Shown: one piece after another, positions 1,919 through 14,644 of the stretch
Layout: each line of letters begins with the position of its first letter
Position numbering within the stretch: the stretch's first letter is position 1
IMG/VR virus record: IMGVR_UViG_3300026966_000012
DNA: 45,080 nucleotides
Direction: 5' to 3' (one strand)
DNA from: a virus
Lineage: Duplodnaviria; Heunggongvirae; Uroviricota; Caudoviricetes
Notes under the pieces: generated by a model
Databases searched by the model: none
The model's input: only the letters and a program-made list of their open reading frames with translations
What the model was told of the DNA's origin: nothing
Program-made: the position numbers and the translations under genes

Positions 1919-2461
1919 ATGTCTGCGTCACCCGTCTCGTTCGGCCCTGGCGGGGGCACTGGAACGAGCCTCCGCGTCGGACCGGTAATCCTTGAAAACG
2001 CAGTCAAGGTCAACGAGTCTGGTGGTATCAACGCGCCGTCCAAGAGAACTGAGGAGGGATTCGACTGGACGACGAAGGTCCACGCAGAGCCGCGGACAGC
2101 GGAGTTCGAAGCGTGGGCGGAAGTGAACGACGTGACCTCAATCACGGCGCTTCGCGACTCGGGAGAACCCATCTCCGTTGCGTTTGATTTCGTGACGATG
2201 GGGAAGTGCAAGCTCGACGACCTGAACATCGACCACGAGCGCGATCACCCTGAGCACGTCTTCGTTCGAGTTCGGGTCACTGAAGTCTACACGCCCAGCA
2301 CAGAGACGGCGATTCTACGCGTGTCGTCTTCGGATGGGTCTGTTCGGTCGTCCGGGCCCGAGCTGTCAGACCCGTCGCTGGCCCGACCGGAGGAACGGAG
2401 CACGATCGGTGGAAGTGGGTCGGCGATAGACGACGTCCTCGACTGGCTGGGGTTTGAATAG
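1919..2461 (+). CDS. Tail tube initiator / Dit-like tail protein
   Basis: Immediately after tape measure; 180-aa beta-rich acidic protein in the position of tube-initiator genes of contractile tails. Confidence 0.5.
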   Translation: MSASPVSFGPGGGTGTSLRVGPVILENAVKVNESGGINAPSKRTEEGFDWTTKVHAEPRTAEFEAWAEVNDVTSITALRDSGEPISVAFDFVTMGKCKLDDLNIDHERDHPEHVFVRVRVTEVYTPSTETAILRVSSSDGSVRSSGPELSDPSLARPEERSTIGGSGSAIDDVLDWLGFE

Positions 2462-2463
2462 AC

Positions 2464-2790
2464 ATGGCGCTCGAAATCATCCCTATCGACCAAGCAAAGG
2501 CACGGCGGAAGGAGCCAATGCGCCTCGAAGTCTACGACATCGAGCTGTTCCCCGCAGAACGGTTCGAGATCACGTTCGACTGGAACGAGTACATGGACCG
2601 CTGGATAGTGACGTTCACCCACCTCGGGACAGACACACGCTTCTACAAGGGGCCAGCTGACCTCTACCAGGACTATGTCTACGACGACATCGTCGCGTTC
2701 ATGTTCATCGACCCGGCGACCCAGGAGACGGTGGTTAAACCAGAGAACCTTGGCGACACCGTCTGGCTGGCTGTCCTCGAGGTGAGCTAA
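2464..2790 (+). CDS. Small baseplate protein (plug-like)
   Basis: 108 aa; FDWNEYMDRW motif resembles small baseplate plug proteins preceding the hub gene; synteny. Confidence 0.5.
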   Translation: MALEIIPIDQAKARRKEPMRLEVYDIELFPAERFEITFDWNEYMDRWIVTFTHLGTDTRFYKGPADLYQDYVYDDIVAFMFIDPATQETVVKPENLGDTVWLAVLEVS

Positions 2791-3648
2791 ATGGTCTGGC
2801 AACAGTACCGCAGAGTCGAAGCGGGTAACGTGACGATCGAGGAGCTGGACATGGACATCACGATCGTCTACAGTGAGAGCTCTGGCCTCGAGTTCGACGT
2901 GACTATCTGGAATCTGGCCGACGACACGTGGGCCCGAATAGAGGAGGGTGACACCTGTCGTATCACGCTCGGGTGGGAGGAAGGGCCGACGAAGACCGTC
3001 GTGTTCGGGACGGTCGAAAAGTTGATCAAGTCACCAGATGGGAACGACGTTTCGTTCCGCATCAAGGGGAAAGATGAGACAGACCGCGCACTGCGCTATG
3101 GCTTCACGAAGACCTACGTCAACCAGACCTACAGCGCGATTGCCCGGTCGATCGCCGGCGAAATCGGCCTCACTGTCGGCGAGGTGGAGTCGACAAGTGC
3201 AGGCCCCACTCGAGAGTTTACCGTGCAGAAAGACCGACCCGCCCGACACTGGCTCAATCAGTTGGTCGCGAAAACACAGAACAAGACAGACGACCCGTGG
3301 GAGTGGTTCGTTGACTCGGGTAAGCTCTACTTCGTCAGGAAAGACGGACGGAAGGAAGATGCCGTCCGGTTGAGCTTCGAGAACACGCTCATCACCATCG
3401 GTGAGTCGGAGGGAGAGAAAGAGGCCGAACAGGCTGGACTCGACTTTACCGCCCTGTGTGAGCCACGTATCCGAAAGGGCGGGGCTGTCGCCGTCGACAC
3501 GCCACAGTACACTGGCGCGTACAAGGTCACATCGTACCGGTTCAGGTCGAACACAGTCTCCGGCGATCACCAGGTGAGTGGGTCACTCGCACCACTGGGT
3601 GCCAGCTACGAAATCGCGCCAGCAGGCGCACGGGAGTTGCTCGACTGA
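2791..3648 (+). CDS. Baseplate hub protein (gp27/gpD-like)
   Basis: 285 aa; ITIWNL..TW, ITLGW, W+YF motifs typical of hub proteins; lies between plug and spike. Confidence 0.7.
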   Translation: MVWQQYRRVEAGNVTIEELDMDITIVYSESSGLEFDVTIWNLADDTWARIEEGDTCRITLGWEEGPTKTVVFGTVEKLIKSPDGNDVSFRIKGKDETDRALRYGFTKTYVNQTYSAIARSIAGEIGLTVGEVESTSAGPTREFTVQKDRPARHWLNQLVAKTQNKTDDPWEWFVDSGKLYFVRKDGRKEDAVRLSFENTLITIGESEGEKEAEQAGLDFTALCEPRIRKGGAVAVDTPQYTGAYKVTSYRFRSNTVSGDHQVSGSLAPLGASYEIAPAGARELLD

Positions 3649-4466
3649 TGTCGGACATTCCTGGAAAGATCAAGCAGATCATCCGCGAGGAACTTCGTGG
3701 CGTGTACACGATCTCGATCTGCATCGTCGAGGAGTTCGATGCTGCTGAGATGCGCGTTCGGGTAAGTCTCAAGCGCGACAGTGAAGCGATCGCCACGGTC
3801 CCGGTTGCAACCCCGTTCGCGCAGACCGACGGATACGGCATGGCGGTCCCGATAGCCAGCGGTGATGAAGGTCTCCTGTTGCACACCAAAGAGGAGATCG
3901 AAGACCTGACCGTCGACGCTGGACACCAGGATGTCGAGCTCAATCACGTCGCGTTCGACATCAACGACGGGTTGTTTTTCCCACGCTACTGGAACGACAA
4001 CGATGACAAACCAGTCGACATCTACGCCGAGTACAAGAAAGGAGACCTGCTGATCGCCCACGGTGCGGATACGTTCGTGCACATCAAGGGTGACGAACAC
4101 GACGACCCTGGAACGACAACGATTCAGACAGCATCGGGGCCGAAGGTCACACTTGACGAGACGGCAAGTGCAGAGAACGTGACGGTAGAGACAGATAACC
4201 TCTCGCTCACACTCGACGACACGCCCGGGGTAGAGAATATCACGGCACAGACCGAGATGCTCACGCTCGTGCTCGATGATACGTCTGGGGCGGAGACCAT
4301 CACGGCGGAAACCTCGTCGGGAGCCGGTATCAAGATAGAGCATGTGAGCGGTGTGTTCAAACTACTCGACAAGAGTGGACACGGCTTCGTCTCAGACGGC
4401 GCCGGGAACATCACGGCCTACGCGGCGTCGTTCGACATCAACGACCAGGGTACGACCTCGTTATGA
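3648..4466 (+). CDS. Baseplate central spike (Gp138 N-terminal/gpV-like)
   Basis: N-terminal OB-like region (RVRV..., PIASGDEGLLL, DINDGLFFP) followed by repetitive beta-helix segments (LTLDDT repeats). Confidence 0.75.
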   Translation: MSDIPGKIKQIIREELRGVYTISICIVEEFDAAEMRVRVSLKRDSEAIATVPVATPFAQTDGYGMAVPIASGDEGLLLHTKEEIEDLTVDAGHQDVELNHVAFDINDGLFFPRYWNDNDDKPVDIYAEYKKGDLLIAHGADTFVHIKGDEHDDPGTTTIQTASGPKVTLDETASAENVTVETDNLSLTLDDTPGVENITAQTEMLTLVLDDTSGAETITAETSSGAGIKIEHVSGVFKLLDKSGHGFVSDGAGNITAYAASFDINDQGTTSL

Positions 4467-4840
4467 GCCTGTATCTCACGCTGATCGGCGCGAACTGTGA
4501 CGCCTTTGGCCACCCGAATAACTGTCAGGAGCCCGCTCCCGGCGCAGTCCAGGCCACGAGTGCCTGTCCGTTCACGGTCAACGGGACAGAGGTAGCGACC
4601 GAGGCGACGGCTGATATGCACTTAAACTCACACGCCCACGATTACGACTCCGAGAACGGGTGTCACCAGAACCAGAGTCACGATCTCGACCCGGACACAG
4701 GCAAGCTCAGCGATTCGGTCACGGTCAACGGAAGACCGGTCTACCTGACGGACACGGCCGTCGCGAACGACCCGGGATCGGGTGGGGATATCGATATCGT
4801 CGACGCCGGCGGCAACGCGTTTGTCACGGAGAGCCCATAA
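4463..4840 (+). CDS. PAAR-like spike tip protein
   Basis: 125 aa right after spike; TVNG repeats, VTVNGRPV, and His/Cys residues for a metal site; ATGA overlap. Confidence 0.65.
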   Translation: MSLYLTLIGANCDAFGHPNNCQEPAPGAVQATSACPFTVNGTEVATEATADMHLNSHAHDYDSENGCHQNQSHDLDPDTGKLSDSVTVNGRPVYLTDTAVANDPGSGGDIDIVDAGGNAFVTESP

Positions 4841-4911
4841 AATATTAGATACTTTTACAGTCGTAGTAGTGTAATAGTATCAGATCCCGCACTCACTACC
4901 ACCAGAAACGC

Positions 4912-4942
4912 TGCACGTGTATATACACACGCACATATGTAC
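4912..4942 (+). repeat. 31-bp purine/pyrimidine-alternating intergenic element, copy 1
   Basis: TGCACGTGTATATACACACGCACATATGTAC; 29/31 identical to the reverse complement of 39436-39466. Confidence 0.85.
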
Positions 4943-4978
4943 ACATAGCCATTTTGAGACCCCTGAGAGTTCCTCTCT

Positions 4979-4998
4979 GAAAACTGGTATATATTCGA
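4979..4998 (+). promoter_or_regulatory. BRE/TATA promoter (GAAAACTGGTATATATTCGA)
   Basis: GAAA plus TATATA about 26 nt before ATG 5019 (leaderless spacing); near-identical element at 44193-44211. Confidence 0.6.
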
Positions 4999-5018
4999 GA
5001 AGGTGTTTGTACGAGTGA

Positions 5019-5393
5019 ATGGGAGAGTCCGGGTACGGCAAAACATGGGCCCTGGAAGCCGACGGTGACATCAAGTTCACTGAGCTCAATAGCCCGGAGT
5101 TCATCGAAGGGACACGCGCCGTCGTCCAGGACATGAAAGTCACGCTGGCAACGATACGTGGAGAAGATCCGTTCGACGAGAACCACGGGCTGGACATGTT
5201 CACCGTTGCCGGCGGGTCTGACGAGGAGCTTCGCTTCGCTATCACGGAGGCGCTTCTCGACGACTTCTCGGACGTCATTCAGGAGATCAACGAGATCGAT
5301 ATTAGCGACCCGAACGAGAACCGGATGCGAGACGTTACGATCGACCTCACGCTCGTCGATGACGAGAACTACACCTTCGAGGTGATCGTATGA
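5019..5393 (+). CDS. Baseplate wedge / sheath initiator (gp25-like)
   Basis: 124 aa just before baseplate J; LATIRGEDPFDENHGLD resembles the gp25-like GE.....G motif. Confidence 0.65.
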   Translation: MGESGYGKTWALEADGDIKFTELNSPEFIEGTRAVVQDMKVTLATIRGEDPFDENHGLDMFTVAGGSDEELRFAITEALLDDFSDVIQEINEIDISDPNENRMRDVTIDLTLVDDENYTFEVIV

Positions 5394-6676
5394 GCTTTGG
5401 CGTCCAGAGTGACGGGTCGTTCAACCGGAAACACGTCGACGACATCGTTGACGATCTTGAGACCAAACTCAAACAGGAAGCTGGGAACGATATCGACCTG
5501 CGCCAGGGATCACCGCTCAAGCAAGTCATCGACATGGTGGCTATCGAGCTCGCCGAGCAGTGGGAGGCGCAAGAAGACAACTACTACGCCTCGTACTACG
5601 AGGATGCGTTCGGCATCCAACTCGACAGACTACTCGCAATCGCCGGTATCAGTCGGATTCCACGTCGGGGCGCGACCGGCGAAGTGACGTTCTCGACCGA
5701 TAGTGCAAACTCGAACGACGTCTCGATTCCGGCTGGGACACAGGTGACGACAGAGGCAACCGACACGAAGCCGGCGATACCGTTCAAGACGACAGAAAAC
5801 GTCACGCTCACGGCCGGGAATACGAGTGTGACCGGCGTCGAGATCAAAGCCCTGGAGCCACACGAGACGGACGTTGACGAGGATTGGCTCGGGGATGAGA
5901 CGAACGTCGCCGCGAATACGATCAAAGTAATCTCGAACCCGATATCTGGTGTCGACTCTGTAACGAACCCGAACAAAACGGGTGACACCGTTCAGGACTA
6001 CGTCACCGGTCGGGACAAAGAGACGGACGCTGAGCTCAAACTCCGGTACGAGAACGTACTGTCGAAGTCCGGGTCTGCAACACTGGATGCGATCCACTCG
6101 CAGATATACAACGCCCATGAGGACATCACGAGCGTGAAGATGGAGGAGAACGTCGACCTGATAGACAACACCGGGTCTGGCGGTCTCCCGCCGAAATCCT
6201 TCCGTGCAACTGTCCACTACACGGGTAGTCACGATAGCGACATAGCCCAGGCCATCCTCGACTCACGACCCGCAGGAATCGAGTCCTACGGGGCGCAGTC
6301 TGCAACAGCACAGACAGAGGATGGGTCTCAGTACACGGAATACTGGGACGACTCGACGGAGACAAGCATTTACGTCGATATCACTGTGACGACAACAGCA
6401 ACCTTCCCGGGCAATGGGACTGACCTCGTCGAGAATGAGATCATCAAGTACATCGGCGGGACCGACAACAGCGGGACCGAATACCCAGGGACGGACATCA
6501 GCGACGACGTGATCTACGACCAGGTGTTCGCTGCGGCAATGCGTGTCGAGGGCGTGCAGGAAGCTGACCTGACCATCGGTACGTCGGATAACCCGACTGG
6601 GACGGCAAATGTTTCGATCGGAACGGCTGAGGTCGCAAGTACAGACACCGGTAAGATCGACGTCACGACAAACTGA
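5390..6676 (+). CDS. Baseplate J-like wedge protein
   Basis: GIQLDRL, ATGEVTF, IPAGT, GRDKETDAELKLR and RPAGI motifs typical of baseplate J family. Confidence 0.9.
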   Translation: MSFGVQSDGSFNRKHVDDIVDDLETKLKQEAGNDIDLRQGSPLKQVIDMVAIELAEQWEAQEDNYYASYYEDAFGIQLDRLLAIAGISRIPRRGATGEVTFSTDSANSNDVSIPAGTQVTTEATDTKPAIPFKTTENVTLTAGNTSVTGVEIKALEPHETDVDEDWLGDETNVAANTIKVISNPISGVDSVTNPNKTGDTVQDYVTGRDKETDAELKLRYENVLSKSGSATLDAIHSQIYNAHEDITSVKMEENVDLIDNTGSGGLPPKSFRATVHYTGSHDSDIAQAILDSRPAGIESYGAQSATAQTEDGSQYTEYWDDSTETSIYVDITVTTTATFPGNGTDLVENEIIKYIGGTDNSGTEYPGTDISDDVIYDQVFAAAMRVEGVQEADLTIGTSDNPTGTANVSIGTAEVASTDTGKIDVTTN

Positions 6677-6687
6677 GGTAGAGAGAT

Positions 6688-7317
6688 ATGGCACATGGAG
6701 GCTCGACTGAAACGTCCGAAGAACGGCTCGAGGAGAACCTCAAATCGCCGTACCCGCACCACGACGGGACGAACTGGTCGGCGCTTATCGATACGTTCGC
6801 TTCAGAGTTCGATGCTCTGGAGACGACTCGTGATACAGTGCTGGACTCAGTGGTGGTGGACAAGGCGACTGGTGCGCAACTGGACCGGCTGGGGGAGATC
6901 GTGCAGCTCCCGCGCCAGACGAACGAGACGGACCCTCACTACCGAGGCCGCCTCAAAGTGCAGCTCAAGAAGTACATCGGGGGCGCAACTATCGACGAGA
7001 TAAAAGAGACAGCCGCGATCCTCCTCGACACGACAGAAGATCAGATCACGATCGAGGAGGACTTCGCGACTGAGGCCGCGCGGTTCACCATCCAGATCAC
7101 CGACGACGCCCTGGACACAGCTGGTGTGACGGCAAACGACTTCAAGACGTTCGTCGACGAAATCCGTGGTGCTGGGATCAAGGCGCTGGCTGAGGAGAGA
7201 GGAACCTTTACATATCGGTCAGCACAAGATTACAGTAGCGGGACAAATGACCCGACCAAGGGGTACTACGACTCGACAGACGGCGTCGAGAACGGCACAT
7301 ACTCGGGTTTACTGTAG
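6688..7317 (+). CDS. Baseplate wedge protein (gpI-like)
   Basis: ATGAQLDRLGEIV...R..ETD..YR motif; follows baseplate J. Confidence 0.65.
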   Translation: MAHGGSTETSEERLEENLKSPYPHHDGTNWSALIDTFASEFDALETTRDTVLDSVVVDKATGAQLDRLGEIVQLPRQTNETDPHYRGRLKVQLKKYIGGATIDEIKETAAILLDTTEDQITIEEDFATEAARFTIQITDDALDTAGVTANDFKTFVDEIRGAGIKALAEERGTFTYRSAQDYSSGTNDPTKGYYDSTDGVENGTYSGLL

Positions 7318-7332
7318 CCCGAAGAAATGACA

Positions 7333-7869
7333 ATGTCCGAAAACAACAGAGAAGTGGACCTGACGGCTGACGATGGCGAGCTCGACGCTTCTGGTGGTAT
7401 CGAGGCGGAGGACGTCGAGGAGCCGGAGTTCGACCCGGTGGCCGAAGGGAAAGAAGAAGCCAAGCGCGTCCTGAACGCGGTCGGTGGAGACAGCGAGTAC
7501 GACCGCGCGGCGAGCGCACTGGCGCAGAAGCAACAGAGCGTCGAATCCATGTCCCAGCAGCACCAGGCCGCTGTGAAAAACATCCAGGCGCTGGAACAGC
7601 GTATCGAGGGACTGGACCTGACCATCAGTCGCCTGGAGGATGTCGACGATGACACGACCGTCTTCCAGCAGCTGGAGGGCGGGGTAATCATCGAGGTTGT
7701 CGACGACGACACTGACGGTGTGAAGGAGAGCCTGGAAGACGCACGCGAATCGCTAACCGAACAGATCGAAGACCTGCGCGGTCAATCAGAGGCGCTCGAA
7801 CGTGGGGTGCAGAAGAACCACTCTGCGATCCAGTACCTCGAGATGTACCGCGACATGAACGAAGAATAG
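7333..7869 (+). CDS. Prefoldin-beta-like coiled-coil protein, candidate tail-fibre chaperone
   Basis: Coiled coil, beta-hairpin (LEDVDDDTTVFQQLEGGVIIEV), coiled coil, matching prefoldin subunit architecture; alternative start 7327. Confidence 0.55.
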   Translation: MSENNREVDLTADDGELDASGGIEAEDVEEPEFDPVAEGKEEAKRVLNAVGGDSEYDRAASALAQKQQSVESMSQQHQAAVKNIQALEQRIEGLDLTISRLEDVDDDTTVFQQLEGGVIIEVVDDDTDGVKESLEDARESLTEQIEDLRGQSEALERGVQKNHSAIQYLEMYRDMNEE

Positions 7870-7895
7870 CTCGCTGACAACGATACCCTCCAAGC

Positions 7896-8843
7896 ATGGC
7901 CGACGCAATTACACTGCAATCCTGGACCTGGACCGATTCCGGCACCGAGCCCACGCAAGGTGACGAGAGCTACGCGAGCGGTGAGCAGCCGATCGCGGAA
8001 TACGACAACTGGGCGATGTGGGCGGTGACGACCGACATCGACTCACTGAACGCCGAGCTCGGCGCACACGCATCGAACCACGAGGCTGGTGGTCAAGACG
8101 AGATCGACCTGTCCGGCCTCGATGTCGGGACGGCTGCACAGTTCGTCGACAACGCCGGTGCGTTTGAGGTACAGACGACTGGTGGGTCGACGATGGCCGC
8201 TATATCGGGCGGTGACTGGACGACGTTCCCGGATATCAACGACGCGTTCACCCTCAAACAGGACATGACGCTCGGCGGGGGCCGAACGATTCAGGTTGGC
8301 CAGGACTCGGGTGCACAGACCCTGGTCGACATGGCGGTGACCTCCTCACCCACAGCAGGTGTGGAACAGTCCTACATGCTGGCGGTGGATGGGTCGTCGT
8401 ACCTGAAAGCGTACGCGGAGGCTGACGGTGCTGGTGGTATCCAGAACGCGAAGTTGGAGTCCTACGTGGACACGGTGATCGCGGCTGGGAACGACCTGAC
8501 ACTCGGGAACGACCTCGTCGCGGCGGGCGGTGAGGTGATCTGGGACGAATCGGCTGGGCACATCGAGCAGAACCAGCTGGAGAACGATAGTCTCACGATC
8601 ACCGGTGGCAACGCGATCTCCGGCGGGGCGGTCTCGCTCGGTGGGTCAGTCACAGTCGGCGTTCAGTCCAACTCGATCCAGACGGACGAGCTCGACCTCA
8701 GTATCGCGCCAACGTGGACAGGGGCACACACGTTCAATGGTGGGATCACGATGGGCGGGCCGCTGGACCTGAACGGCAACTCGCTCGAGGGGACCGATGG
8801 CGTCGTCCTCCCAGTTGGGACGGACAAATACGTGACCCAGTAA
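7896..8843 (+). CDS. Tail fibre protein (proximal, baseplate-attached)
   Basis: N-terminal W.D.G.EP....Y..GEQP.AEYDNW motif resembles fibre attachment domains; Gly/Thr/Asp-rich beta repeats; follows wedge genes. Confidence 0.65.
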   Translation: MADAITLQSWTWTDSGTEPTQGDESYASGEQPIAEYDNWAMWAVTTDIDSLNAELGAHASNHEAGGQDEIDLSGLDVGTAAQFVDNAGAFEVQTTGGSTMAAISGGDWTTFPDINDAFTLKQDMTLGGGRTIQVGQDSGAQTLVDMAVTSSPTAGVEQSYMLAVDGSSYLKAYAEADGAGGIQNAKLESYVDTVIAAGNDLTLGNDLVAAGGEVIWDESAGHIEQNQLENDSLTITGGNAISGGAVSLGGSVTVGVQSNSIQTDELDLSIAPTWTGAHTFNGGITMGGPLDLNGNSLEGTDGVVLPVGTDKYVTQ

Positions 8844-8844
8844 G

Positions 8845-10107
8845 ATGTCGGCGCAACCGGGCTCTGTATGGGTCGAGGGAAACGATCTCCACTTCATCGA
8901 CGGTGTCGGGACAGAGTGGCGCTACACGGGTGACCTGGAAGGGACACCAGCGGGAGCAGTGCCTGGATCGATCTGGATCGAGAGTGGCGACAATCGGCTT
9001 CATTATATCGACTCGTCCGGGGAGGAGCGGTCGACGCCACGGTCAGTGGGCTCCTCGGTCGCTGGCGTAAACGGGTCTATCTGGATAGAGAACTCGCTGA
9101 TCAAGTACGTCGATTCGGGGTCGTTCAAGTCGACCGCTCACGACGACGTTGCGCACGACGACGTTGCTCACAGTGACAAATCCTATTCGGACAAGTCCCA
9201 CTCCGACGATAGTCACAACGACATCTCTCACAGTAACGTCGATCACGGAGACAAATCCTATTCGGACAAGTCCCACTCAGACGATTTGCATGACGACGTC
9301 TCTCATAATAACTCCCACGGCGATTTCGCTCACTGGGATATTGCGTTTAGCGACGACGCTCACTCAAACGACGCCCATACCGACGACGCGCACGATAACG
9401 CACACTCCGACGCCGGTCACAGTGACAAGGCGCACGACGACGACAATCACAACGACGTCTCACACGACAACACGCACTCGGACGATAGCCACGACAACTC
9501 GCACTCGGACGACAGTCACGACGACTCGGCCCACGACAACGTTTCCGGTAGCACCCCCCACGAGGATAAAGCACACGACGACCTCTCTCACGGTGATCAC
9601 CAGGACAGTATATTCGCGCCACCGAACGATCACTCTGACTGGTCGCACGAGGATGATGCACACAACGACGCCCCGTCGTTTAGCGACCACGGAGACGTTG
9701 CCCACGACAATAAATCTCACAGTAATAACCACTCGAATAAATCACACGATAATACCCACGACAATGTGACACACTCGAATAAGTCACACGACGACGATTC
9801 GCACAACAACACGAGTCACTCGAACTCACACTCGGATAACCCATATTCAGACAAATCGCACGACGACAAGTCCCACGGTGACGTCGTTCATCAGGACGCA
9901 GACCACGACAACTCGTACTCAGACGCAGCCCACACAGACAAAGCGCACTCTGACGATAGTCACTCGAACGATAGCCACGATGATGGGAGTCACAGTAACA
10001 TAGCGCATACAAATAAGTCCCACTCTGACGATAGCCACTCGAACGATAGCCACCAAGATGGAAGCCATAGTGACGCTGCACACACAGATCAACCACAACA
10101 GGTATAA
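8845..10107 (+). CDS. His/Asp-rich repeat protein (distal fibre/adhesin-like; putative radical SAM substrate)
   Basis: About 98-aa N-domain with three GS(V/I)W(V/I)E repeats, then about 320 aa of H-x-(D/N) repeats; starts 1 nt after the fibre gene and sits before a rSAM/SPASM gene. Confidence 0.85.
   Translation: MSAQPGSVWVEGNDLHFIDGVGTEWRYTGDLEGTPAGAVPGSIWIESGDNRLHYIDSSGEERSTPRSVGSSVAGVNGSIWIENSLIKYVDSGSFKSTAHDDVAHDDVAHSDKSYSDKSHSDDSHNDISHSNVDHGDKSYSDKSHSDDLHDDVSHNNSHGDFAHWDIAFSDDAHSNDAHTDDAHDNAHSDAGHSDKAHDDDNHNDVSHDNTHSDDSHDNSHSDDSHDDSAHDNVSGSTPHEDKAHDDLSHGDHQDSIFAPPNDHSDWSHEDDAHNDAPSFSDHGDVAHDNKSHSNNHSNKSHDNTHDNVTHSNKSHDDDSHNNTSHSNSHSDNPYSDKSHDDKSHGDVVHQDADHDNSYSDAAHTDKAHSDDSHSNDSHDDGSHSNIAHTNKSHSDDSHSNDSHQDGSHSDAAHTDQPQQV
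9139..10089 (+). repeat. Coding repeat array of aromatic-x-(D/N) motifs
   Basis: Manual count: 58 H-x-D/N, 4 YSD, 2 FSD; mostly 5-residue period; 75-bp offset duplications at 9175/9250 and 9946/10021. Confidence 0.9.
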
Positions 10108-10146
10108 TATCTGAGAACATCGTAATAGGTAGAGTGCGGAGTAGTC

Positions 10147-11640
10147 ATGACCATACACGTATCAAAAGACACAGGTTGTAACCTGGGGTGCAGCTACTGC
10201 TACGAGGAGCCAGATCGAGAGATCAACGAGAACGACGTTTCCTCACAGTCGCTTGACACTGAAGCTGTGATCGCCCAACTCGAACAGTGGAAAGAGCAGT
10301 ACCCGACAGATGTCCCCGGGCTCCATGGGGGAGAGCCGCTCCTGATAGACACAGACGATCTGGAAGTCGTGTTCAAGTGGGTCTACGACAACTACGAGTC
10401 GGTGAGAGATGGAACGCAAGCGTCCCACATACAGACTAACGGGACGTTGATCAAGGAGCGCCATATCGACCTGTTCAAGCAGTACAACGTTGCTGTCGGC
10501 ATCTCGTGCGACGGGCCTGTTGAGCTCAACAGGGAACGTCTCGCCCGTCCAGAGAAGGATGAGGCCGCAGACGGCTTTACCACCACAGACAGCCTGTCGC
10601 AGATCACGAACGACAACATCACACGGCTGGCAAGCCAGGGAGTCAGTGTCGGGATCATCGTCGTCATTCACGAGACGAACGCTGGAACGGACGACCGGTT
10701 AGAAACACTCCTCGACTGGATGGACGATCTTGCGCAACAGGGGGTGACCGGGCACTACAACCCCGCCCTTCCGTACGACGAGATCCAGACGGAGAACTCG
10801 CTCTCAGGAGAGCGGCTGAAAGAAGTGTACCTCCGCACCTACGAGTGGATGAAAGAGGAGCAGTACCGCGAGTGGAACCCGATGAGTGACGCCAGAGACA
10901 ACTTGCTCGGGAACAAGCTCACCAACTGTGTCAACAACCGCTGTGACGTCTTCAACGCCGGCGCGGCGAAGATCGTCACTGGTGAGGGTGAGACGACTGG
11001 CTGTGGCAAAACGTGGGGGTCTGTCGGCGATGGTGTCCCGTTCCTCCAGGGCCCATCGAACGAAAGCAAGTACGACGATAACGAGGAGCGGTACGAGATG
11101 TTACAGCAGGTTCCGGGTCCGTACACGGACGGTGAGTCGGACCTGGGTGGGTGCAAGGGGTGCAAATACTGGAACGTCTGTCAGGGCGGGTGTCCCTCGG
11201 GGGCGATCGACCAGGACTTTCGCAACCGGACGCGTTGGTGTCCCGCGAAGTACGCAATGTACGAGGCTATCGAGAACGACATGCGGACACTGTTCCCGAA
11301 CATCACCCTGATCACAGACTATCCGTGGAACGCGGAGCTCGCGAAGTACGCCAGCAAGTGGGGGCTGGACATCAAGCCGTTCGCAGCGATGGACCCTGGC
11401 GTAGACGGACCATCCTCTGTCTGGGGTGGCTATTCCCACCCGTGGGGCGGCCCACTGGAGCGCGTCCCGGACGATGTCTTCCCCGATGACTGGCGTGGCG
11501 AGAAGGAGTTCATCAAGTCGATGTACGACGAGGAAGTGCTCGAGATAGACGAGAACACGCACAACTGGCACGCCGACTCCGACATGGGAGTCAAGAACGA
11601 TGATGGGTGGGAGCAGGTCGATGAGGAGACAGAAGCATGA
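10147..11640 (+). CDS. Radical SAM enzyme with SPASM domain (peptide/protein maturase type)
   Basis: CNLGCSYC (CxxxCxxC), GGEPLL, QTNGTL, ISCDGP; SPASM cysteines CVNNRC...TGCG...CKGCKYWNVCQGGCP...WC. Confidence 0.95.
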   Translation: MTIHVSKDTGCNLGCSYCYEEPDREINENDVSSQSLDTEAVIAQLEQWKEQYPTDVPGLHGGEPLLIDTDDLEVVFKWVYDNYESVRDGTQASHIQTNGTLIKERHIDLFKQYNVAVGISCDGPVELNRERLARPEKDEAADGFTTTDSLSQITNDNITRLASQGVSVGIIVVIHETNAGTDDRLETLLDWMDDLAQQGVTGHYNPALPYDEIQTENSLSGERLKEVYLRTYEWMKEEQYREWNPMSDARDNLLGNKLTNCVNNRCDVFNAGAAKIVTGEGETTGCGKTWGSVGDGVPFLQGPSNESKYDDNEERYEMLQQVPGPYTDGESDLGGCKGCKYWNVCQGGCPSGAIDQDFRNRTRWCPAKYAMYEAIENDMRTLFPNITLITDYPWNAELAKYASKWGLDIKPFAAMDPGVDGPSSVWGGYSHPWGGPLERVPDDVFPDDWRGEKEFIKSMYDEEVLEIDENTHNWHADSDMGVKNDDGWEQVDEETEA

Positions 11641-12578
11641 CTGTCACGCCCACATATGTCGAGGATGTCCCGGAGAACCGTGTCGAACTCGCCCCGTTTG
11701 CGCGATTCAACTGGAAAACGGCCGAGAGTAAAGAGATGTGGAAGGATGCGCTCCACAACGCCGAGTTCGCAAAGTCGGAGGCTGAGTGGCGATCGGTCCT
11801 GAGCGATAAGACCGACCGGAAGGCGGCGATCATCCATATAAACAACTTCAACCGCGAGAAGTGGCTCAGGCGGATGGGTGAGCATGGTCTCGCCTACCGC
11901 GACATCCGATACTCGGAGCCGTACGACGGGTTCGCGCACAAGTTCCACCCGACGACGATAGACGACCCGCGACGGAACACATACGCGGTGATCGCGAAGG
12001 ACGATGATATCGCGGATAAGATGGAGGAAGCCGAGCTGGAGATGGAAGGGCACGAGCGACATGGAACGGTCGGTGAGCTCCTGGGGTTCCCAGACTGTTG
12101 CCGTGCACAGTTCAACGACATCTGGGTAGATAACTGGGACCGAGGGCTCACGGACCCCATGTACGAAGTCGCGTGCAACACCCCGTCGGCCCGCGAGATA
12201 ACTGATGCCGACAACGTTCGACTGGAGGAGCCGGAAGCGTACACGAACGTCATGTGGCGATACTTCGGCTGGTCGTTCATCACGCACATCCCGTGCTCGT
12301 TCGAGTGCGAGGAGTCGACTGAGATAGGGCAAGCTCGGCACGAGATCATGCACGAGGCTGGGTACGGAGAGGCCGCCGACATGCTCTACGGCTGGCTGGA
12401 CCAACCGTTCGTCTGGGACGCACTCCATTCGATTGCGAACGTTCGCAACATGCACGTGACGGCCACTGCGGGGACGTCATCGTACTGGTCGAAGAAGCGA
12501 GTCGAATGGCGCCGGGAACACTTCCCGCAGATGAAGCCGTTCTACACGGAAGAAGACCTCGCGCGCATCCACTCATGA
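11637..12578 (+). CDS. Cys-motif protein coupled to rSAM (DUF483-like)
   Basis: GELLGFPDCC and HIPCSFEC motifs; ATGA overlap with the rSAM stop. Confidence 0.55.
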   Translation: MTVTPTYVEDVPENRVELAPFARFNWKTAESKEMWKDALHNAEFAKSEAEWRSVLSDKTDRKAAIIHINNFNREKWLRRMGEHGLAYRDIRYSEPYDGFAHKFHPTTIDDPRRNTYAVIAKDDDIADKMEEAELEMEGHERHGTVGELLGFPDCCRAQFNDIWVDNWDRGLTDPMYEVACNTPSAREITDADNVRLEEPEAYTNVMWRYFGWSFITHIPCSFECEESTEIGQARHEIMHEAGYGEAADMLYGWLDQPFVWDALHSIANVRNMHVTATAGTSSYWSKKRVEWRREHFPQMKPFYTEEDLARIHS

Positions 12579-12985
12579 TCGAGCACCTGCGACCGATCGA
12601 GCCCATCGAGACGGCCCTCCCCGACGAGTGCATCAACCCCTCAACCCACCTACCACCAGAAACGGTTGAGCCGCCACGAGAGGCGGTCCTGGCGGATGAG
12701 GATGTGTCTGTTGAGGTCAGAATCAAACACGACTACGACTGGATGCACGTGGACCTCCCCCGATTCGATGGCTGTGATCGGCGAGAAGCGATCTGGACGG
12801 CGGTCTGGTTTGCCCGCGCTATTGGTGTCCCGGGGACGTGGAAAGAGCAGTTGCGCGTCGCGGTTGGTGACAACGACATGGAGACATACAGACTGGGCGC
12901 GCTGTACCGATACGCAGAGTTTCCACTTCGCGAGCGCGAAACGAACTATGACAAGTACGGTGAAAATCCGGAGTACGGACAATGA
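12575..12985 (+). CDS. Hypothetical protein
   Basis: ATGA overlaps on both sides; acidic, haloarchaeal codon usage; start placed at 12575 rather than 12506. Confidence 0.65.
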   Translation: MIEHLRPIEPIETALPDECINPSTHLPPETVEPPREAVLADEDVSVEVRIKHDYDWMHVDLPRFDGCDRREAIWTAVWFARAIGVPGTWKEQLRVAVGDNDMETYRLGALYRYAEFPLRERETNYDKYGENPEYGQ

Positions 12986-13491
12986 CTCACACGAGAAACA
13001 TCCTGGATGCGCTGAACAAAGCAGATGTCGAGGGGGAACTGATCGACAGAGTCAAAGAGACGACTGTCGCTGAGTCGGACTACGACGAACTGAGCTGGTT
13101 CTACGATGAAAGAAGATACGACGAGCTCCTCCAGGTCACCGACGCGTATGTTGTCCATGCTCGCGGGTTCACAGTCGAAGATCAGATCGTCCTCGACGAG
13201 TACGCGCTGAACGGCGGCCACAAGAGATGGTGGCAACAGAAGCTCGCTGACGAGTTCGACCGCGATTGGCGGGACGACGGCCCGAATCAGGTCCTGTACT
13301 GGTCTATTACCGGGAGTGGAACGTTCACGATCCAGTACCCTGGGCTTGCCGCAGCATCCGTCGAAAGTATCGGCCGTGTCAAACAAACGTGGGACGCGAT
13401 GGGCGTTCCAGACGACGCTCAGGTCGGATGGCTCCTCGAGATCGACGGCCAACCTTCGTGGAGAGGGTTACGTAGCGAGACTGATGAGTGA
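12982..13491 (+). CDS. Hypothetical protein
   Basis: 169-aa acidic ORF translationally coupled within the cluster. Confidence 0.7.
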   Translation: MTHTRNILDALNKADVEGELIDRVKETTVAESDYDELSWFYDERRYDELLQVTDAYVVHARGFTVEDQIVLDEYALNGGHKRWWQQKLADEFDRDWRDDGPNQVLYWSITGSGTFTIQYPGLAAASVESIGRVKQTWDAMGVPDDAQVGWLLEIDGQPSWRGLRSETDE

Positions 13492-14161
13492 CGTTCGGGT
13501 CAGCGGCATCATGACCCTCCGGAACGCGGAGCAGGTCGGCTATCCGTATGTGCCATCGATCCTGTCCGTTCTCCCAATCGTAGACGAGTTTCTCATCAAC
13601 GACGGTGGGAGTGACGACGGGACGTGGGAGACACTCTGTACACTGGCCGATTCCTTCGACAAGATCGAGCTCTACCAGATACCAGATGGTGAACCGGCCG
13701 CGCAGTGGGATATGGTGGATAGGCAACTCAACGAGCTGATCGACGAGGCCGATGGCGACTGGTTGATCGAATCACAGTGTGACGAGGTGTGGCCACGGTC
13801 GAGCCTACATACGGTGAATGAGATCATGCGTTCTGACACCGAGTATGCGTCTATCAGACAGCCGCGACTGAGTAACGGCGAATGGGACGCCGTGTCGAAC
13901 TATGACTACTGGACGGTCCGTTGCGTCAAGAACGCTCCTGACCTCGAAAGCTACGAGGGTGGCGATTCGTTCCACACAGGCGGGTATTCGAGCCCGACTG
14001 AGGGATACACCAGCCACAACGTACCACCAGAAACGAAGATAGACGCTCCGTTTTGGCACATTCACGACTTCGATCGGGTCGCCCACGCCGAGCGGCACCT
14101 GTTCTGGTTAGCGACAGAAAGCGACGCCCGTCGTAGGCTCTATGAACGGACTGTAGAGTGA
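13484..14161 (+). CDS. Glycosyltransferase family 2 (GT-A fold)
   Basis: LRNAE...SIL...DEFLINDGGSDDGT motif, then GDWLIESQCDE (DxD-like region). Confidence 0.85.
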   Translation: MSDVRVSGIMTLRNAEQVGYPYVPSILSVLPIVDEFLINDGGSDDGTWETLCTLADSFDKIELYQIPDGEPAAQWDMVDRQLNELIDEADGDWLIESQCDEVWPRSSLHTVNEIMRSDTEYASIRQPRLSNGEWDAVSNYDYWTVRCVKNAPDLESYEGGDSFHTGGYSSPTEGYTSHNVPPETKIDAPFWHIHDFDRVAHAERHLFWLATESDARRRLYERTVE

Positions 14162-14209: not shown

Positions 14210-14644
14210 ATGGGCGTCGAGTTTGAGCCGTCGACGAGACGGAGAGATACCTCCTGGGTGCAGGGGGAGTTGGCAACTGCGTTCGAGAACTTCCCAGCTG
14301 GCGGGCTCCAGCGTCTCTCGCTCGACTCGAGATACTATCTAACGACCCCAGCCGACTTTGCACACATCATCGAGGAGGACATCGTCTCGTATCGCTACTA
14401 TCGACGAGCACAGTTCGACTGTGAGAACTTCGCGTTCGGATTCAAGAACGTCTGTGACGCGCGCTATGGACTGAACAGTGTCGGTGTCGTGCTCGACTAC
14501 CGAACGCGAGAGACGTACAACATCGTCGTCTACGAGGACGGTGTCGTGGACGTGTTCGACCCGAACGCACGCGAGCTGGTCGCTGCTGGTGGTAGTGAGG
14601 TGGAGACGGCATATGAGATCGACCTCGGTGTGATCATCTTATGA
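14210..14644 (+). CDS. Papain-like/agglutinin C-terminal-type domain protein (possibly inactive)
   Basis: FDCENFA motif, and ...TYNIVV...VFDP matching the HAxN...EP segment but lacking the His. Confidence 0.55.
   Translation: MGVEFEPSTRRRDTSWVQGELATAFENFPAGGLQRLSLDSRYYLTTPADFAHIIEEDIVSYRYYRRAQFDCENFAFGFKNVCDARYGLNSVGVVLDYRTRETYNIVVYEDGVVDVFDPNARELVAAGGSEVETAYEIDLGVIIL

Follow-up and report, generated by a model that had tools for sequence, protein, structure and literature searches.

The His-x-Asp/Asn repeat protein of a tailed virus and the radical SAM/SPASM enzyme encoded next to it

The repeat array and the neighbouring genes

The window analysed here is a stretch of 45,080 nucleotides from a tailed virus of haloarchaea (Caudoviricetes; IMG/VR record IMGVR_UViG_3300026966_000012). 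We studied in it an open reading frame whose product ends in a long array of His-x-Asp/Asn triplets (hereafter the HxD protein), together with the two genes that follow it. These code for a radical S-adenosylmethionine (rSAM) enzyme with a SPASM domain, whose gene begins 39 bases downstream of the HxD gene, and for a Cys-rich DUF483-like protein (Table 1). The upstream genes follow the order of a myovirus-type tail module, namely baseplate J (5390-6676), a Mu gp48-like protein (6688-7317), a prefoldin-like protein (7327-7869), a fibre-like protein and then the HxD protein itself. The latter has no family match in Pfam, NCBIfam, PHROG or PADLOC; neither the fibre-like protein nor the DUF483-like partner is matched in PHROGs, the partner has no NCBIfam match either, and a megablast search of positions 7000-13000 against isolated phages gave no match.

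The array is composed of 24% Asp, 19% Ser, 18% His and 9% Asn, and contains neither Cys nor Met. A preliminary description of this DNA, made from its letters alone, had stated that all 58 repeat His are followed by Asp or Asn at position +2. Our recount confirms this without a single exception (Asp in 38 cases, Asn in 20), and the protein has only two further His, both within its N-terminal domain, in the contexts HFI and HYI. When the repeat part was shuffled 100,000 times, His with Asp or Asn at +2 numbered 19.2 on average (standard deviation 3.2) and 35 at most, and a score of 58 out of 58 has a probability of about 2e-28 from composition alone. The same description had read four YSD and two FSD triplets as in-register replacements of His units; they begin at Y114, Y139, Y334 and Y358 and at F168 and F279. 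Eight His-to-His gaps are longer than 6 residues, and six of them contain exactly one such unit in register; the remaining two are the linkers VSGSTP and SIFAPPND. Position 3 of the unit is Asp or Asn throughout and never Ser.

The 75-bp DNA duplications that had been reported are real at both ends of the array, but its interior carries no lag-75 signal: identity at this lag is 25-40% there, which equals background, and over the whole array the lag-15 identity (0.475) exceeds the lag-75 identity (0.396). The 25-residue super-repeat that had been deduced from the duplications is thus not a general property of the array. The duplications are the trace of recent local array growth.

Table 1. Positions of the features discussed in the text (all coordinates refer to the window).
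Feature	Position	Strand	Remark
Fibre-like protein, 315 aa	7896..8843	+	after the baseplate genes; ends with LPVGTDKY, motif 3 residues from the stop
HxD protein (presumed substrate), 420 aa	8845..10107	+	open reading frame
N-terminal domain, three beta-hairpin repeats GSxWxEG-x-LHYID-xxG-xER	8845..9138	+	alignment of 17 sequences
Array of 64 aromatic-x-D/N units (58 H, 4 Y, 2 F)	9139..10089	+	in frame, residues 99-415
75-bp tandem duplication, array 5' end	9161..9312	+	Tandem Repeats Finder: period 75, 2.0 copies, 83% matches
Second 75-bp duplication, array 3' end	9937..10086	+	9937-10011 vs 10012-10086, 77% identity
rSAM/SPASM enzyme (presumed maturase), 497 aa	10147..11640	+	Pfam Radical_SAM, 4.5e-13
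CX3CX2C, radical SAM cluster motif (C11, C15, C18)	10177..10200	+	residue pattern
CX2CX5CX3C, SPASM core (C336, C339, C345, C349)	11152..11193	+	further Cys at 261, 266, 286, 365
H475-A-D477-S, copy of the substrate motif in the acidic C-terminal tail of the enzyme	11569..11580	+	residues 475-478
DUF483-like Cys-rich protein, 313 aa	11637..12578	+	weak PF04467 match; start overlaps rSAM stop

The enzyme is a complete rSAM/SPASM protein, with a radical SAM cluster motif and a set of eight SPASM Cys, which are conserved in 21 homologues. In NCBIfam it comes closest to the cyclophane synthases AmcB, DynA and YhhB, followed by the anaerobic sulfatase-maturating enzyme (anSME), all of them far under the cut-off (enzyme score against family cut-off, in bits: AmcB 89/425, YhhB 83/445, GrrM/OscB 59/310, XyeB 50/450, FxsB 50/370). 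The best PDB relatives in a profile search are the triceptide synthase ChlB (9gm3, 2.2e-21) and anSME (4k36, 1.1e-19); PADLOC returned only weak viperin-type matches. A quick maximum-likelihood tree, from which the relative L015 is absent, places the 24 HxD-linked enzymes in one clade on a long stem (Shimodaira-Hasegawa-like approximate likelihood ratio test, 100), separate from the rows passing the curated cut-offs for anSME (n = 4), AmcB and FxsB. The nearest row to this clade is L016. Upstream of the rSAM gene of L016 lies the gene of a viral protein (2243-3781) with about 25 YSDHTNTGY-type units and 59 aromatic-x-D/N triplets, mostly with Tyr; L016 may be a sister system with a Tyr-rich grammar.

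The substrate motif recurs in the enzyme itself, as H-A-D-S in the C-terminal tail. An H-x-D, mostly H-x-D-[ST], is found in this tail in 16 of the 21 aligned rSAM homologues, and the Thermus phage enzymes end with four of them. The tail motif may serve the enzyme as a self-substrate, as a plug of the pseudo-substrate type or for docking. Several of the haloarchaeal-type homologues (P0016, P0047, P0052, P0059, P0084, P0089 and P0123) are 780-820 aa long and carry intein/Hint domains (PF14528, PF14890, PF07591).

The enzyme probably works together with the DUF483-like protein, whose gene lies downstream of the rSAM gene at 14 of the 21 loci of our first set and at all four extra haloarchaeal loci. 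Residues G146, L149, G150, P152, C154, C155, H217, P219, C220 and C224 are invariant in this partner. Its AlphaFold2 model (predicted local distance difference test, pLDDT, 84.7) has no Foldseek match and no clear fold in the PDB; the best VIA rows, 2guk (Z 6.8) and the Cys methyltransferase NleE (Z 4.7), do not suffice to assign a fold. The partner bears a C-terminal class I methyltransferase domain at seven bacterial and uncultured-virus loci (L056, L010 and L012 among them), a domain which the halovirus and Thermus phage versions lack.

Conservation of the triplet and its linkage to one enzyme clade

The array was compared with those of 24 relatives, which come from viruses of haloarchaea, from Thermus and other phages, and from bacterial genomes. 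Asp or Asn at +2 is kept by 785 of their 804 repeat His (97.6%). Cys and Met together account for 19 of 4151 residues, and it is Tyr, Phe or Trp that occupy the His slot. For instance, the haloarchaeal relative L135 has 21 H-x-D/N and 16 F/Y/W-x-D/N units, i.e., 37 motif sites, and its array, as well as those of L136 and L138, has an aromatic residue at position 1 and Asp or Asn at position 3. The preliminary description had reasoned that orthologues losing Asp/Asn at +2, or exchanging His for Cys or Met, would favour metal binding. The relatives keep the former and are almost free of the latter, and the proposal that aromaticity rather than metal-ligand ability is conserved at position 1 is thus supported beyond the window.

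A closer comparison is provided by L004, an IMG/VR relative whose rSAM enzyme matches ours at 96% and whose HxD orthologue is equal in length. Between the two, DNA identity is 81% in the repeat gene and 92% in the adjacent rSAM gene. At position 1, 62 of 64 residues are identical, the only changes being F>H and Y>H, and the codons differ synonymously in 10 cases and non-synonymously in 2. At position 3 there are 16 synonymous codon changes and 10 non-synonymous ones, every one of the latter being an exchange between Asp and Asn. Positions 2, 4 and 5, on the other hand, are 67-75% identical, with varied changes and a non-synonymous to synonymous ratio of about 1:1. The codon pattern at positions 1 and 3 therefore indicates that the DNA has drifted apart, with selection retaining nothing but the aromatic and the Asp/Asn sites. 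The clustering of the changes at positions 2, 4 and 5 matches a host-contact surface on a fixed scaffold.

As for the distance between units, 50 of the 63 spacings in the window are of 5 residues, so that the earlier statement of a mostly 5-residue spacing stands; eight are of 4 residues, two of 3, and spacings of 6, 9 and 11 occur once each. All eight 4-residue spacings follow an Asn. This rule, which had been noticed before, is valid in the window and in L004 but fails in L013, P0004, L001, L009 and L055, and it is probably a lineage feature, inherited from duplicated HDN[STA] units. Across the 24 relatives the spacing ranges from 3 to 8 and depends on the lineage (3, 4, 5, 7 or 8). Because the spacing varies while the triplet is kept, it is the triplet that is constrained, not the period. 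The predominance of exact 5-residue steps in the window could otherwise be taken as the sign of a regular fold, for instance a pentapeptide-repeat beta-helix with His ladders, and the grammar would then be structural. This explanation appears very improbable to us, given the freedom of spacing in the relatives, a repeat unit without any hydrophobic core position, the lack of a pentapeptide or other Pfam match at E <= 0.01, and the low AlphaFold2 confidence (pLDDT 51-57) of residues 101-123, i.e., the first 23 residues of the array and the only part of it that was modelled.

The array is linked to one particular group of enzymes. A dense HxD open reading frame is present at 18 of 21 loci with a close rSAM homologue (at least 85 bits), nearly always directly upstream, and is absent from all 113 loci whose rSAM/SPASM genes are more distant (Fisher p = 1.4e-19). 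Searches with tblastn and phmmer recovered the trio of HxD, rSAM and DUF483-like genes, in equal order after the baseplate and fibre genes, in the Thermus phages phiMa and Cumys (L001 and L002); it occurs also in many uncultured viruses and in Halovivax and Salinilacihabitans proviruses. Pairs of HxD and rSAM genes are found in Paenibacillus, Bryobacterales and Nanohaloarchaea genomes, with a partner that is separate, fused or undetected. In Bryobacterales (L057, L058) a longer enzyme (~650-690 aa) adjoins peptides of 70-88 aa made almost only of HxD, and near L057 (2029-10807), the locus whose neighbours were scanned, there are an S8 protease (subtilase), PatG domains and a MacB/FtsX exporter. 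Such a layout is that of a classical cluster for a peptide that is made on ribosomes and modified after translation (RiPP), and suggests a secreted small-peptide version of the system.

The 'rSAM module' of Cumys and phiMa has been described in a preprint that proposed DNA modification as its role and did not mention the repeat (bioRxiv 10.1101/2024.08.14.607894). All three of its genes are homologous to those of the window, with 41% identity in the HxD N-terminal domain and 31% in the rSAM enzyme. It differs from the window in its host, a thermophilic bacterium instead of a haloarchaeon, and in its repeat, where the 53-54 His are all in H-x-D, position 3 is always Asp and the spacing is 3-5. 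Judging by this homology, the window cassette is a member of the uncharacterised phage HxD/rSAM/DUF483 cassette first pictured for Cumys and phiMa.

The substitutions and the gene linkage also bear on the possibility that the array is an unmodified metal-binding or acidic low-complexity segment of His and Asp, the rSAM enzyme acting elsewhere, for example on DNA as in the preprint's proposal. His-x-Asp is a pair of metal ligands known, for example, from the 2-His-1-carboxylate triad; yet the His is replaced by Phe, Tyr or Trp and not by Cys, Met or Glu, and Asn, a poor ligand, fills 20 of the 58 position-3 sites following a His. The predicted disorder of residues 101-123 would suit such a segment, and so would the close rSAM loci without an HxD gene; the co-occurrence of the HxD gene with the rSAM clade, the all-HxD peptides of RiPP-type clusters with protease and exporter, and the placement of the enzyme within the peptide-modifying SPASM group speak against it, and we consider an unmodified segment improbable.

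A putative ring-forming chemistry

Considering the above results, the HxD array is very probably the substrate of the neighbouring rSAM enzyme. The view that the triplet is an enzyme-recognition motif rather than generic His-rich low complexity, already put forward in the preliminary description, is supported by the conservation of the grammar and by the adjacent, linked rSAM clade. With less assurance, and by analogy with characterised enzymes, we favour the idea that the triplets are recognition and reaction sites at once, where a cyclophane would be formed between an aromatic carbon of position 1 and the C-beta of the Asp or Asn at position 3. The equivalence of His, Tyr and Phe at position 1 and the presence of Asp or Asn at position 3 fit this chemistry because a ring-to-C-beta link predicts both, which a metal site would not do.

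The analogy is with the triceptide systems (XncB, OscB, MscB, YxdB, HaaB, YhhB, HtkB and ChlB), which act on an aromatic-X-X motif by joining the ring of position 1 to the C-beta of position 3, have several motifs per substrate, and use enzymes that combine a SPASM domain with CX3CX2C near the N-terminus. Position 3 may be Asp or Asn, and His, Phe, Tyr and Trp have proved interchangeable at position 1 in experiments. Specifically, OscB links Trp to the C-beta of Asn or Asp and YxdB the C3 of Tyr to the C-beta of Asp; HaaB, YhhB and HtkB link the C2 of His to the C-beta of Ala, Arg or Lys; and the His of position 1 can be replaced by Phe or Trp in the case of HtkB and by Tyr in that of ScaB (PMC11002830, PMC11499958). 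The window differs from these systems in that its enzyme belongs to a separate clade, its motif His-x-Asp/Asn is uncharacterised, and its 64 sites lie on a protein of 420 aa that belongs to a virus tail module and has no evident leader, with the DUF483-like protein as a constant partner. It would work like a triceptide system, yet it cannot be filed under any named family, because the curated cut-offs failed, the tree forks are weak and the substrate is a structural protein rather than a leader-core peptide.

By analogy, the reaction would proceed as follows. A 5'-deoxyadenosyl radical would abstract a hydrogen from the C-beta of the Asp or Asn at position 3, the resulting carbon radical would attack the ring at position 1 (the C2 of His, or ring carbons of Tyr or Phe), and an electron would pass to the auxiliary SPASM cluster. 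Each motif would thereby become a three-residue ring with a loss of 2 Da. With up to 64 repeats, some 60% of the C-terminal 317 residues would be in small rings, separated by 0 to 3 free residues, and a disordered acidic chain would be turned into a stiff, protease-resistant distal segment of the tail fibre. Positions 2, 4 and 5 would remain exposed and free to vary. The modified chain may still bind metal.

A reaction other than C-C cyclophane formation at the same sites of the same enzyme is, in our opinion, rather unlikely. The options comprise a C-N or C-O link via the imidazole, a carbon insertion or bridge (as may be compared with the +8 Da of HxsA), oxidation or hydroxylation of the Asp/Asn C-beta, epimerisation, and methylation or thiolation of His C2; furthermore, an additional step may be contributed by the DUF483-like protein and, in the bacterial versions, by its fused methyltransferase domain. 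The position of the clade apart from every named family agrees with such options, and so does the class I methyltransferase domain on the bacterial partners. A precedent is offered by the HXS antiphage system (HxsA, the rSAM enzymes HxsB and HxsC, and HxsD), in which a whole protein of His-x-(small polar) repeats is matured by rSAM/SPASM enzymes and a partner, and where a rSAM-dependent change of +8 Da, found on S-H-R-S-S of the His-x-Ser repeat protein, maps to His and the +2 residue (PMC13128918). HxsA differs from the window protein in having five HxS repeats and an abundance of basic residues, as compared with 64 acidic HxD/N units, and the HXS system as a whole in its two rSAM enzymes, its +8 Da product and its role, that of an effector of bacterial defence which is exported to the periplasm; NCBIfam gave no match to HxsA (TIGR03979) or HxsD, the best rSAM score being 89 bits, with no Hxs model near its cut-off.

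A second precedent is anSME (PDB 4k36), an oxidiser of C-beta almost level with ChlB in score. Like the window enzyme, it is a rSAM/SPASM protein without N-terminal recognition domain, and it acts on a whole protein by abstracting a C-beta hydrogen. The window enzyme, however, reaches 78 bits against the TIGR03942 cut-off of 349, and the array contains neither Cys nor the sulfatase motif C/S-x-P-x-R, while the Ser at position 2 is not conserved. As for the options themselves, a link through an imidazole nitrogen is impossible on the Phe units, a reaction at a single residue is hard to square with the joint constraint on both positions, and an aromatic position 1 that includes Phe, which has no heteroatom, combined with a position 3 that has a C-beta hydrogen is the exact signature of a ring-to-C-beta link.

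Several observations weigh against the cyclophane proposal, or against the HxD protein as substrate. The enzyme is far under the curated cut-off of every named cyclophane-synthase family, the best case being AmcB (89 against 425); its match to anSME (78 bits; 1.1e-19) is nearly as good as those to ChlB and AmcB; and in the quick tree the HxD clade is connected with the rows of AmcB, FxsB/XyeB-like enzymes and anSME by forks that are weak or unsplit. The HxD protein, with its 420 aa and a folded N-terminal domain, shows no obvious leader or cleavage site, and the enzyme, whose cluster motif starts from residue 11, is without a recognition domain at its N-terminus. Triceptide substrates in the literature examined are short leader-core peptides, all characterised triceptides are cleaved before the first cyclophane motif (PMC12912966), and the triceptide motifs characterised in that literature do not include His-x-Asp. 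The HXS enzymes perform another reaction, of +8 Da, on their His-x-Ser repeats (PMC13128918). Moreover, the close rSAM loci L006, L008 and L059 have no HxD gene in the DNA examined around them, and L137 (Halorussus salinus, 4001-6206) has the rSAM and DUF483-like genes with no HxD gene within 4 kb on either side. The neighbours of the L137 pair are an MFS transporter and an acetyltransferase; this locus may be a remnant, or its substrate may be encoded elsewhere. Finally, for every member of the family we infer the modification itself from sequence.

Probable place in the tail fibre and significance

The N-terminal domain of the HxD protein consists of three beta-hairpin repeats (Table 1), and AlphaFold2 models its residues 1-100 as all beta with a pLDDT of ~85-96. 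A fold search found no PDB match at E <= 0.001, and the sole fold match in BFVD is the homologue from Thermus phage phiMa; a homotrimer prediction with three copies of the domain scored 0.00, which is uninformative either way. The same three-hairpin domain also ends two proteins without HxD part (P0006 and P0008), and in L010 the HxD segment is located inside a Phage-tail_3 protein.

The fibre-like gene product just upstream is probably the proximal part of the fibre, and the attachment point of the HxD protein. In P0003, P0004, P0005, P0007, P0009 and L015 a PVGTD-[KL]-[FYW] segment and the HxD protein form a single chain, and several viruses have one polypeptide that runs from the N-terminal part of the fibre through the PVGTDK[FY] motif and the hairpin domain to the array. 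The two parts are split as in the window (8800-8850) in L135 (2668-3947) and L138 (2533-3744). In this split layout the fibre gene stops 3-4 residues past PVGTD-x-[FY] and the HxD gene begins 1-15 bases further on, the junction in the window being TAA G ATG. A programmed frameshift or a readthrough joining the two genes of the window was considered and rejected: the frame offset is +1 in the window, +2 in L135 and 0 in L138, and since it differs between relatives, this is a true gene split and not recoding. The three-hairpin domain would dock the HxD protein on the fibre protein encoded upstream.

Other genes of the same region deserve mention. The prefoldin-like coiled-coil protein encoded between the baseplate and fibre genes (PF01920, 6e-10) may serve as a chaperone in fibre assembly. 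Further downstream in this gene string, 13316-14161 and 14210-14644 show a weak match to a family 2 glycosyltransferase (20.9 bits, below the cut-off) and a weak C-terminal match of ricin-type lectin kind.

We infer the crosslink chemistry, the action of the enzyme on the HxD protein, the presence of this protein in the virion and its mechanical role from the gene order, the grammar and the comparisons given above. A search of the literature found nothing on His-x-Asp repeats as rSAM targets or on rSAM-modified virion proteins, and nothing relevant on HxD repeats with phage fibres or on AmcA/AmcB; the triceptide landscape published in JACS in 2022 may already contain the clade or HxD precursors. 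The proposal is open to direct test, since cultures exist of the Thermus phages phiMa and Cumys, and work on triceptides routinely combines co-expression with mass measurement.

Whether tailed viruses of archaea and bacteria carry a RiPP-type maturase of their own, which would install dozens of ring crosslinks (as many as 64 in the window) in a tail-fibre protein of the virion, is a question on which we see the balance as even. If they do, the result would be a covalently stapled, non-globular fibre segment with fast-evolving exposed variable positions, in other words a natural protein-length poly-macrocycle that would owe its stiffness and stability to covalent rings instead of a fold. It would be the first virus structural protein modified by a radical SAM enzyme and would far exceed every known ribosomal product in crosslinking. 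The enzyme clade would be new, as would its motif, His-x-Asp/Asn, and the finding would correct the published guess that the phage 'rSAM module' modifies DNA. The rSAM peptide chemistry of small natural products would then also build virus particles, in hosts as different as Thermus, soil bacteria and haloarchaea.

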